Positions 13,034 through 39,747 of a stretch of DNA of 64,000 bases are shown here, in pieces. Source of the stretch: a virus. Taxonomy: Duplodnaviria > Caudoviricetes. The notes under the pieces were generated by a model. It saw only the letters and a program-made list of their open reading frames with translations, was not told the DNA's origin and made no database searches. The position numbers and the translations under genes were made by a program. Every line of letters starts with the position of its first letter. Positions within the stretch are counted from its first letter, which is position 1. The DNA is taken from the IMG/VR virus record IMGVR_UViG_3300035676_000001; one strand, 5' to 3'.

Positions 13034-13525
13034 TTACTCTTCTACCGTTTCTTCAATAACTTCAATTTGTTCGTCAACCTTTTGCGTTGGTTTATCTGAA
13101 AATGAACGCAACATCCATACAAACTTGCCGTGAGACTCCATCAAATCTTGGACCAGATTTGCGGTAGCATATGACTTTTGAGTTTCTGCTTCTTCTGAAA
13201 TCTTGGACATCATATCGCAGAACTCAATATTAGATTTCAATAAGTCTGAAATCATACCTTCAGCGTTTACTGAACTATTTCCTTCAGCAATACCAGACAC
13301 TTCAAGAACTCTCTTTAAGCTACTGAGAGGTTTAACATTCAAATATCTCATATGTTCTGAGAGACGGTCAATCTCTTCAAACATAGTCTCATACTGTCCA
13401 CCAAAAAGGGTATGAAGTTGTTGGAAATCTTCTCCTACAACATTCCAATGATAGACCCAAGTTTTATGAAAAAGGACAAAAAGAGACGCTTGTGCATCAC
13501 TCAATAGTTTAAATAACTTTTCCAT
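13034..13525 (-). CDS. dps: Dps/ferritin-like DNA-protection protein
   Basis: KTWVYHWNVVG.DF.QLH.LF..QY...FEEID.LSEH ferroxidase motif; TATAAATA at 13547-13554. Confidence 0.88.
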   Translation of the reverse strand: MEKLFKLLSDAQASLFVLFHKTWVYHWNVVGEDFQQLHTLFGGQYETMFEEIDRLSEHMRYLNVKPLSSLKRVLEVSGIAEGNSSVNAEGMISDLLKSNIEFCDMMSKISEEAETQKSYATANLVQDLMESHGKFVWMLRSFSDKPTQKVDEQIEVIEETVEE

Positions 13526-13549
13526 TATACCAATACTTTTTTCAAGTAT

Positions 13550-13984
13550 TTATAAAGTGGGCATTACAGTATGTTTGGGATGTTTGCATCCTCTTGAATA
13601 TCTTCCATTTCCAATATTTTTTGATCCAAAAGTTTCAGTTAATGAATGGCAGTTTGGACACAAAACTCTAAGATTACTTGAAGTATGATTAAATGGGTCA
13701 CCATCAATGTGGTCTATATGGAGTGGAACTTTTCCAGTATTAGAATTAATTTCCGACCAACCACATTCAGAACACTTACTATTAGATTGCTCTATCAAAT
13801 AATTTCTAACATATTGCGATAGTTGAAATCCATTTCCACCCAATTCTTTACCATTCAACCATCCAAATATATATTCTTTACTTCTATAATCAGAAGAACA
13901 TCTACAAGAGCAATATTTTCCAGATTTATTTGCTGGATTATATTTAAATTGCTTATTACAATTCAAACAATTTGAAATCGCCAT
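13550..13984 (-). CDS. HNH homing endonuclease next to tRNA-Val
   Basis: N-terminal CxxC..YCSxxC; CSECG..LHIDHIDGD..N..NLRVLCPNCH. Confidence 0.88.
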   Translation of the reverse strand: MAISNCLNCNKQFKYNPANKSGKYCSCRCSSDYRSKEYIFGWLNGKELGGNGFQLSQYVRNYLIEQSNSKCSECGWSEINSNTGKVPLHIDHIDGDPFNHTSSNLRVLCPNCHSLTETFGSKNIGNGRYSRGCKHPKHTVMPTL

Positions 13985-13986
13985 AG

Positions 13987-14027
13987 TAATGTAGAGTATT
14001 TTTTGTTATTTATACAACTCTACATTA
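13987..14027 (-). promoter_or_regulatory. 11-bp inverted repeat enclosing the late promoter TATAAATA, ending 2 nt before the HNH ATG
   Basis: TAATGTAGAGT-tgTATAAATAacaaaaaat-ACTCTACATTA-ct-ATG. Confidence 0.8.
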
Positions 14028-14037
14028 AAATTTAAAA

Positions 14038-14109
14038 TGGGCAATCGCAGATTCGAACTGCGGACTTTCTGAATGTAAATCAGACACTCTACCGCTGAGT
14101 TAATCGCCC
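14038..14109 (-). tRNA. tRNA-Val(UAC)
   Basis: GGGCGAT/ATTGCCC acceptor; TCTGA-TTTACAT-TCAGA anticodon arm. Confidence 0.9.
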
Positions 14110-14116
14110 GATAAAG

Positions 14117-14281
14117 TCAAGATTGACTTAACATATATTCTACAGTATTTGCTACATCGTTCATAGCATCACGAAGGTCTGGTCTTTGTCCAGACTCCAT
14201 TTTAATAATGGGTCGGTGGTCGTCAACCAAAGTCCAACGCCACTGTTTCATATCTTCACAATACCAGAGATTAATTTTCAT
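14117..14281 (-). CDS. 54-aa hypothetical (below ORF-track cutoff)
   Basis: MKINLWYCEDMKQWRWTLVDDHRPIIKMESGQRPDLRDAMNDVANTVEYMLSQS. Confidence 0.65.
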   Translation of the reverse strand: MKINLWYCEDMKQWRWTLVDDHRPIIKMESGQRPDLRDAMNDVANTVEYMLSQS

Positions 14282-14474
14282 TCTTTTGATATTCTAATTT
14301 AATCCAATTAAGAAGAGCATAAGTTTCTGGCAACTCTGCCTTACAATTTAGATAGTCAGTATCATCAAGCATTTCTTCTGCTTCATAATGCTCTATCTCA
14401 CTTGAGAGATAATCTGCATAATGTCTGAAAGCAGTGATAGCAAGTTGTCTATCTCGTTGGGAAATAAGAGACAT
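14271..14474 (-). CDS. hypothetical protein
   Basis: 67 aa; GGAGG SD and TTGACG-17-TATTAT promoter (14496-14524). Confidence 0.65.
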   Translation of the reverse strand: MSLISQRDRQLAITAFRHYADYLSSEIEHYEAEEMLDDTDYLNCKAELPETYALLNWIKLEYQKNEN

Positions 14475-39130: not shown

Positions 39131-39155
39131 TGCCCAAAAGAGGACTTGAACCTAT
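39131..39155 (-). pseudogene. 3' remnant (T-arm and acceptor strand) of the disrupted tRNA
   Basis: ATAGG-TTCAAGT-CCTCT-TTTGGGC-A. Confidence 0.75.
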
Positions 39156-39163
39156 ATCGACAA

Positions 39164-39246
39164 TGCTCCAGAGAAGATTTGAACTTCCACGCTTTTTAAG
39201 GCGGCGGATTCTAAGTCCGCTGTGTCTACCGTTCCACCACTGGAGC
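39164..39246 (-). tRNA. tRNA-Leu(UAG), intact, inside the HNH cassette
   Basis: GCTCCAG/CTGGAGC acceptor; GCGGA-CTTAGAA-TCCGC; variable arm; TTCAAAT. Confidence 0.92.
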
Positions 39247-39690
39247 TAAACAATTTCTATTTGAGAATGTATTAGTTTGTGTATGACAATTAGGACATAA
39301 TAATCTTAAGTTGTCGGGTCTGTTATCATATGGTTGACCGTTAATATGGTCAACTTGTAATCTTAATGGTTTTCCATTCCAAGTAGAAGGAATGCCACAT
39401 TCAAAACAAGTATTACCTATTTCTTCTATTAATAATCTATATAGAATTTCACGCTTACAAGATTTACCTTTTAAAGAAGTATATTCTAAAAGTGTTTTCC
39501 ATTTATTATATCCACCATATTGCCTAATTTTATTAGTATAATCTGGTTTGTAATCGGGAATCCATTTTTTATATCTTGCTCGTAAAGTATCTGGTTTACA
39601 ATTTAATTCTAAACATAATTGAGTTGGTGATACTCCAGACAATAAAGATTCTATTATGTATTCTTTTTTGTCGTCAAGGTCTTTTCTCAT
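39226..39690 (-). CDS. HNH homing endonuclease whose last 7 codons lie inside tRNA-Leu
   Basis: Start ATG 39690; HTH-like N-terminus; CFECG..LQVDHING..DNR.DNLRLLCPNCH; ends GCT CCA GTG GTG GAA CGG TAG. Confidence 0.88.
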   Translation of the reverse strand: MRKDLDDKKEYIIESLLSGVSPTQLCLELNCKPDTLRARYKKWIPDYKPDYTNKIRQYGGYNKWKTLLEYTSLKGKSCKREILYRLLIEEIGNTCFECGIPSTWNGKPLRLQVDHINGQPYDNRPDNLRLLCPNCHTQTNTFSNRNCLAPVVER

Positions 39691-39725
39691 AATTGGTAGA
39701 CACGCTGTATTATTTATACAAAATA

Positions 39726-39747
39726 CTACTAATTTTACCATTTGGGC
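39726..39747 (-). pseudogene. 5' remnant (acceptor strand and decayed D-arm) of the disrupted tRNA-Leu
   Basis: GCCCAAATGGTAAAATTAGTAG; GCCCAAA is the exact complement of TTTGGGC in the 3' remnant. Confidence 0.7.

Follow-up and report, generated by a model that had tools for sequence, protein, structure and literature searches.

A free-standing HNH homing endonuclease gene that probably invaded the junction of tRNA-Val and the dps late promoter in a freshwater T4-like cyanophage

Islands and prophages that carry an integrase are seated in the 3' ends of tRNA genes, where the tRNA is restored and its end recurs as a short direct repeat at the far side of the element. Among phages, T4 (with SegB) and T5 have homing nucleases in their tRNA clusters, but the natural target sites of such enzymes are rarely visible. 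In T5 and BF23, F-TflI and F-TflII, together with F-TflIV, are free-standing ORFs between tRNA genes that have been reported to be site-specific endonucleases (Akulenko et al. 2004, as cited in PMC2330249). The same paper describes SegB, a GIY-YIG nuclease encoded in the tRNA cluster of T4, as recognising the T-psi-C stem-loop of tRNA genes, as absent from relatives and as driving co-conversion of the tRNA region, with an ORF that ends at a tRNA (PMC2330249).

The locus described here belongs to a freshwater T4-like cyanophage (Kyanoviridae). The whole stretch of DNA that was analysed, referred to as the window, is 64,000 nt long and contains ten tRNA genes, pstS, a porin gene and mazG, together with T4-type late promoters (TATAAATA); the tRNA genes and the ORFs taken as genes are on the minus strand in both regions examined. 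A near-identity search with the window found no close isolate in the phage collection, and the nearest isolate was the freshwater Synechococcus phage S-SRM01, which has the same gene order and approximately 77% nucleotide identity over the matching pieces. Within the tRNA-rich region of the window, a gene for an HNH protein is located between tRNA-Val and dps (Table 1). The initial annotation had proposed that this gene entered at the 3' end of tRNA-Val and carries a remnant of the tRNA end at its far side, and its reading of the letters was correct throughout: the end of tRNA-Val and the HNH ORF are as described, positions 13558-13569 of the minus strand read CTGT-AATGCCC-A, and the ORF crosses them as ..HPKHTVMPTL before it stops within the dps promoter. 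Our preferred explanation, which we regard as likely, is that a free-standing HNH homing endonuclease gene of the T5 F-TflIV family invaded the junction of tRNA-Val and the dps late promoter, and that the last 7-8 nt of the resident tRNA gene were left behind as a stub.

Table 1. Coordinates of the features at the tRNA-Val/dps locus and of the related cassette in the window.
Feature	Position	Strand	Evidence or remark
dps / ferritin-like gene	13034..13525	(-)	right flank of the insertion; Pfam Ferritin 2.4e-22
dps late promoter box TATAAATA	13547..13554	(-)	contains the HNH stop TAA (13550-13552); box conserved before dps in relatives
HNH ORF, 144 codons	13550-13984	(-)	Pfam HNH PF01844, 22.1 bits (cut-off 21.4)
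tRNA-Val stub, tRNA positions 67-73, ATGCCCA	13558..13564	(-)	with the preceding A, AATGCCCA; codons Met-Pro-Th(r)
Thr-Val codons ACTGTA	13565..13570	(-)	conserved C-terminus of the nuclease itself; the commonest tRNA allele likewise has GTA at its positions 64-66
HNH endonuclease core, M1 to ..HPKH	13571..13984	(-)	catalytic and zinc-binding residues intact
Leader hairpin, 11-bp stem	13987..14027	(-)	late promoter box TATAAATA (14007-14014) in the loop; 3' arm stops 2 nt before ATG
10-nt spacer, tRNA 3' end to leader hairpin	14028..14037	(-)	left edge of the inserted block
tRNA-Val(tac), intact, allele C	14038..14109	(-)	ARAGORN; Rfam tRNA 67.7 bits; ends CTGCG-ATTGCCC-A
54-aa gene	14117..14281	(-)	left flank of the insertion; syntenic in S-SRM01 and IMG/VR relatives
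Sister cassette, HNH and tRNA-Leu	39131-39747 (HNH 39226-39690)		Pfam HNH 28.7 bits

The state of the locus in relatives was assessed by exact-pattern and dps-anchored scans of IMG/VR, which together yielded approximately 90 loci. In S-SRM01 the 54-aa gene, tRNA-Val and dps follow one another with no HNH gene between them, and directly after the last base of tRNA-Val come the promoter and leader that are also seen in the window. Furthermore, in approximately 70 distinct related contigs from IMG/VR the 3' end of tRNA-Val (..CCCA) adjoins the dps promoter without an HNH gene; the promoter at these empty sites begins in one of several variants (CTTTATAAATA, CTTGATAAATA, CTTGCATAAATA and TTTTATAAATA), and the HNH-free tRNA-Val genes end in ATCGCCCA, ATTGCCCA or a few other forms. 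The expectation that HNH-free relatives would carry tRNA-Val directly before the dps promoter was therefore borne out, but not one of them has the predicted ending AATGCCCA. The earlier view of the HNH gene as an insertion is upheld by these relatives, in which tRNA-Val stands directly before the same promoter; the gene is a true insertion at the tRNA-Val/dps junction and shows a presence/absence polymorphism there. A third HNH type (45% identity) was seen in L082, L089 and L090 (5108-5473), between tRNA-Ile(tat) and tRNA-Met, and the tRNA-Val site of these contigs is empty.

Three occupied DNA alleles were available, namely the window, L094 (the same record as L097) and L098, whose HNH proteins are 96% and 90% identical, respectively, to that of the window. 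Segment by segment, the window is 96% identical to L094 and 91% to L098 in the HNH core, 94% and 85% in the spacer plus hairpin, and 68% and 72% in the upstream genes (14117-14420), while dps is 79% identical to that of L094 and the contig of L098 ends before this comparison can be made. The HNH block, at 91-96% in the core against 68-79% in the flanks, is thus far more similar between genomes than its surroundings. The tRNA-Val allele accompanies the block in L094, where allele C is also found (72 of 72 aligned bases equal, with one 1-nt indel), but not in L098, which has a different allele upstream (69%). With approximately 70 empty contigs and three occupied alleles, the HNH gene is sporadic at an otherwise conserved locus, and its absence from these close relatives and the contrast between block and flanks are both signatures of recent horizontal spread.

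The tRNA-Val gene itself is highly mosaic: 110 such genes fall into 47 distinct alleles (49 in a second count). Allele C (one extra T in the D-loop) is also found directly before the promoter in the HNH-free contigs L011 and L012. The initial annotation had put forward a variant 3' end, supplied by the element and possibly immune to its own cleavage; this is at most a candidate reading, to which the alleles of L011, L012 and L098 lend no support. In L014-L018, dps is 98-99% identical to that of the window, the tRNA-Val alleles are different, the HNH gene is absent and, in the alignment, the upstream genes have visibly diverged from those of the window. Since dps resembles that of L014-L018 while tRNA-Val, the HNH gene and the upstream genes differ, the window is therefore recombinant exactly at the tRNA-Val/HNH site. 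By these sequence comparisons, tRNA-Val is a recombination hot spot independent of the HNH gene; its alleles are shuffled among backbones, and this helps to explain the mosaic tRNA clusters of T4-like cyanophages. Two further observations concern the same region: the two small genes upstream of tRNA-Val (14117-14474) are closer to S-SRM01 than to L014-L018, and L014 and L017 (as well as L007-L010) carry clearly different tRNA-Val alleles approximately 75 nt upstream of dps despite dps genes that are 98-99% identical.

Some relatives lack a recognisable tRNA-Val in this slot. In L084 (2947-2973), a spacer of only 27 nt lies between tRNA-Gly and the dps promoter, and because it joins the 5' part of tRNA-Val (GCGATTAACTC) to ..CCA, the tRNA-Val of this contig was deleted internally. 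As in the 5' arm of the hairpins that lead HNH genes, the first bases of the spacer are TTGGTAG; it is possibly the footprint of a lost HNH gene. In L004 (35-138) and L037 (1-45), the slot holds sequence that received no ARAGORN call and abuts the dps promoter; it has a core resembling an anticodon loop (TTTACAC), no canonical T-loop, and acceptor arms in which G and C are swapped (GCCCGAT...ATCGGGC).

The inserted gene has the features of an active nuclease gene. The catalytic His/Asn/His residues and two CxxC zinc pairs are present in the window HNH, and C71, C74, D91, H92, N104, C109, C112 and H113 are invariant in the HNH alignment. Against L094 and L098, dN/dS of the core is 0.10-0.13, indicating purifying selection. 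The gene is functional-looking in these respects, and its product is a predicted nuclease. A tblastn search matched the protein to hegA (F-TflIV) of T5 and BF23 (36% identity over 67% of the protein, E 3e-7), and in the protein database its cluster consists of 15 members at 90% identity or more, encoded on dozens of contigs. The leader folds into a hairpin of -11.6 kcal/mol (z -3.3), and hairpins of the same design but of other sequence precede homologues in L099, L038, RN05-S and L047; the HNH gene is predicted to be late-expressed, with a late-promoter hairpin of its own. The 10-nt spacer is missing at every empty site and is present, with some divergence, in L094 and L098. A reading of this spacer as a degenerate repeat of the start of the dps promoter, which would imply a duplication of approximately 20 nt, was rejected after comparison by hand (at most 8 of 15 positions ungapped, in AT-rich sequence, not significant).

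At the far end of the block, the stub adjoins the dps promoter exactly as the tRNA 3' end does in the roughly 70 empty sites, and AATGCCCA is ATTGCCCA with one substitution. To score this likeness, a matrix was built from the 24 distinct 3' 13-mers of tRNA-Val in relatives and applied to all 127,976 13-mers of the window. The 13-mer at the junction ranked 155th (top 0.12%), and with the same matrix the L094 version (GTCCA) reached 0.8% and the L098 version (CACTA, stub AATCACTA) 9%. The stub of the window has thus kept its resemblance to a tRNA, whereas those of L094 and L098 have decayed; in L098 the likeness to a tRNA end is gone, and this counts against our preferred explanation. In the window, the match of the stub to the tRNA end is more than chance. 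Coincidence had initially been left open for a remnant of about 12 nt, a reservation that does not survive a rank of this order at the one position where the tRNA ends in approximately 70 HNH-free relatives.

The exact position of the junction depends on where the nuclease ends. Homologues of 51-72% identity terminate in ..HPK[HYF]T[VI], each followed by an unrelated tail. When the tails were left out of the tree, this ending was found dispersed among several deep lineages, and tRNA-docked endings arose several times. Because the HPK[HYF]T[VI] ending recurs over lineages with differing tails, ACTGTA is best read as the Thr-Val codons of the nuclease. This places the junction at tRNA position 66/67, within the acceptor strand, and not in the T-arm region to which it had first been assigned. 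The far-end remnant thus stands as the 3' end of tRNA-Val, but its CTGT, previously taken for T-stem, belongs to the conserved Thr-Val codons. The junction is ambiguous by 3 nt because GTA is common to nuclease and tRNA. The insertion is accordingly placed, formally, within the acceptor 3' strand of tRNA-Val at position 66/67 ± 3 nt, and the upstream tRNA is complete. The HNH ORF is fused in frame to the 7-8 nt tRNA stub and ends in the TATAAATA box of dps. Two candidates were discarded in the course of this analysis. A remnant of exactly 13 nt (tRNA positions 61-73), suggested by the joining of ..HPKH to tRNA-Val in L099, was ruled out by protein searches, in which HPKHTV proved to be the native C-terminus. 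An extant tRNA-Val with the proposed old end (T-loop, ACTGT, AATGCCC and A) was dropped, since no such tRNA was found in IMG/VR and the sole match there was a non-tRNA sequence, L095.

The strongest support for a scar comes from the protein tails of other cluster members, which read as if translated from empty sites. In the window's cluster and a 72% relative, HTV is followed by MPTL, MSTL, MTTL, ITTL, SPT, SPTCINTWKKV or SPIL and then a stop. When the empty-site junctions of relatives were translated in frame from tRNA position 67, they gave, again up to a stop, SPT at 20 loci, SPTL at 14, LPTL at 7, SPTCINTQKRV at 3 and SPIL at 2. The tails SPT and SPIL, with their nucleotides back-translated, are exact readings of tRNA-Val positions 67-73 plus local promoter variants; SPTCINTWKKV closely resembles the empty-site reading SPTCINTQKRV, and the MPTL of the window is one base away from LPTL. 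By back-translation, at least four promoter backgrounds would share a junction at one and the same base, with a stub that matches the tRNA type of its backbone. Exact-pattern scans of the fetched loci, IMG/VR and genome_contigs returned no match to DNA of an SPT-type junction.

A route of break repair can be proposed for the preferred explanation. During mixed infection, the enzyme would cut or nick HNH-free tRNA-Val/dps alleles near the T-loop or the acceptor region, by analogy with SegB. The left end would then prime on the donor tRNA-Val and copy its 3' end, the hairpin and the HNH gene, after which the new strand would anneal to the right end, with the recipient's own positions 67-73 and dps promoter being kept. 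The outcome would be a regenerated tRNA and a stub matched to the backbone. Such a route would explain the intact tRNA, the backbone-matched stub and the high tRNA identity between the window and L094. We infer the putative cleavage target only from the junction at 66/67 and the precedent of SegB. It is possible, although we would not go so far as to call it probable, that one HNH clade is site-specific for the 3' acceptor strand of tRNA-Val, and that each homing event breaks the DNA near 66/67, rebuilds the tRNA from the donor and leaves the recipient's last 7 nt as a backbone-matched stub. If true, the outcome would be like an att-site duplication, yet would arise from break repair without an integrase, and stubs of the ATCGCCCA and ATTGCCCA types on near-identical nuclease genes would record repeated, precise invasions.

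Association with tRNA genes is a property of the wider HNH family. Among 115 distinct homologues from metagenomes and IMG/VR, 80 end between -45 and +10 nt of the 5' end of a same-strand tRNA, where 11% would be expected; 17 others have a tRNA on the upstream side alone, within 100 nt, such that a tRNA is present on at least one side in 97. DNA-level relatives of 50-73% identity end inside tRNA-Val, in its 5' part; usually the two overlap by 21 nt and the stop codon falls in the D-loop, and in L099 (73% identity) the ..HPKH of the ORF runs directly into the first base of tRNA-Val. The closest docked relatives, L099 (73%) and P0002 (75%), are on the 5' side of a tRNA-Val and not on the 3' side, which was counted against the preferred explanation. 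In the T5-like Escherichia phage HdH2 (L177, 692-1158), an HNH ORF that is 40% identical over 83% ends on the first base of tRNA-Thr; tRNA docking is therefore common to cyanophages and Demerecviridae. In a protein scan of genome_contigs no relative exceeded 53% identity, and these matches carry no information on the junction in the window. Those of 40-53% identity (L258-L337) include many contigs of bacterial and candidate-phyla MAGs and of filamentous cyanobacteria (Phormidium, Microseira, Floridaenema).

Docking offers another origin for the stub. The HNH gene would once have been docked on a second tRNA-Val downstream of it, a later deletion would have removed positions 1 to approximately 66 of that tRNA and left the stub, and the upstream tRNA-Val would be a mere neighbour. 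Every one of the DNA-level relatives of 50-73% identity is docked in this way, L038 has the order tRNA-Asn, HNH, tRNA-Val, dps at the same locus, and L084 is a case in which tRNA-Val was deleted internally at this site. We nevertheless consider this origin unlikely: two events would be required, as would an intermediate carrying a pair of tRNA-Val genes, and no such intermediate was encountered in any scan. Nor does this origin explain the Thr-Val codons, which docked forms lack but which are conserved in several further lineages; simple deletion from a docked form would therefore not yield the window form. Stub alleles in agreement with their local backbone are also better accounted for by repeated entry than by a single old deletion.

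A less probable reading still is that the gene is no longer mobile, that the nuclease has been retained for a different function, for example to compete with co-infecting phages or to degrade host DNA, and that the scar is history. Purifying selection and late-promoter control would agree with this, as would the persistence of the same junction down to 72% protein identity (P0009/P0135); against it, the gene is missing from approximately 70 close relatives, including the contigs whose dps is 98-99% identical, and the block is far more similar between backbones than are the flanks. A retained role would not exclude homing, and as the sole reading it is disfavoured by the patchy distribution. 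That the HNH block was simply inserted between tRNA and promoter, with an 8-13 nt likeness to the tRNA end by chance, is very improbable: the remnant is short, one of the three occupied DNA alleles (L098) has no resemblance and half of the 12 nt initially put forward (ACTGTA) is nuclease coding sequence, but the matrix rank was obtained at a single position fixed beforehand by the empty-site junction, and two independent protein tails equal the empty-site readings from position 67, with a third closely similar.

The second HNH gene of the window, in the tRNA-Leu cassette, provides a comparison for an invasion leaving tRNA stubs. The initial annotation had noted a motif shared by both HNH proteins, which was confirmed: they are 44% identical over the core (61 residues), with CxxCG, DHI, NL and LCPNCH invariant, and the two genes have the same promoter-in-hairpin leader. 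It had also suggested that this cassette, at 39.1-39.7 kb, follows the same logic, and the empty site in S-SRM01 agrees, having tRNA-Ala followed by an intact tRNA-Leu, both ends of which are the stubs found in the window. In both cases, then, the entry of one of these related HNH genes into a tRNA gene left part of the resident tRNA behind as stubs. The sister cassette differs in having its own tRNA downstream and both 5' and 3' stubs, whereas in the tRNA-Val case an intact tRNA lies upstream, the only stub is a 3' one of 7-8 nt, and the nuclease is not tied to one tRNA allele. The second HNH gene of the window (80% identity), together with its tRNA-Leu(tag), was also observed in the main tRNA cluster, upstream of tRNA-Gly, in L047 (2019-2546) and L080 (1842-2369). 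As this HNH gene is at the mazG/tRNA-Ala locus in the window and elsewhere in L047 and L080, the unit of nuclease and tRNA-Leu therefore occupies different loci.

Compared with described systems, the window HNH is of the same protein family as F-Tfl (hegA) of T5 and BF23 and likewise lies in a phage tRNA region. Unlike these, it is found in Kyanoviridae, lies 3' of a tRNA, is joined to the stub of a tRNA 3' end and finishes in the promoter of the next gene; the F-Tfl proteins are reported endonucleases, whereas the window HNH is a predicted one. With T4 SegB it has in common that it is a free-standing nuclease gene in a T4-like tRNA cluster that is absent from relatives, but the folds are unrelated (GIY-YIG in SegB, HNH in the window), and a duplicated tRNA end is not mentioned in the passages on SegB consulted in PMC2330249. 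Like integrase-borne islands, the window element is seated in the 3' part of a tRNA, with the tRNA regenerated and a repeat at the far end; unlike them, it is without an integrase, measures only about 0.5 kb and resides in a lytic phage, and its repeat most likely arose from break repair and not from att-site recombination. Free-standing homing nucleases of phage tRNA clusters are already known in the form of T5 F-Tfl and T4 SegB, and the window element is of this kind. Its novel features are the host group, a location 3' of a tRNA whose acceptor end is duplicated, an ORF that takes its last codons from the tRNA stub and its stop codon from the promoter of its neighbour, and an unusually rich set of empty and occupied natural alleles. 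The locus, with approximately 70 sites that are empty, several that are occupied and a base-precise junction, predicts a cut in tRNA-Val at about positions 60-70, so homing into a tRNA gene becomes directly testable in cyanophages.
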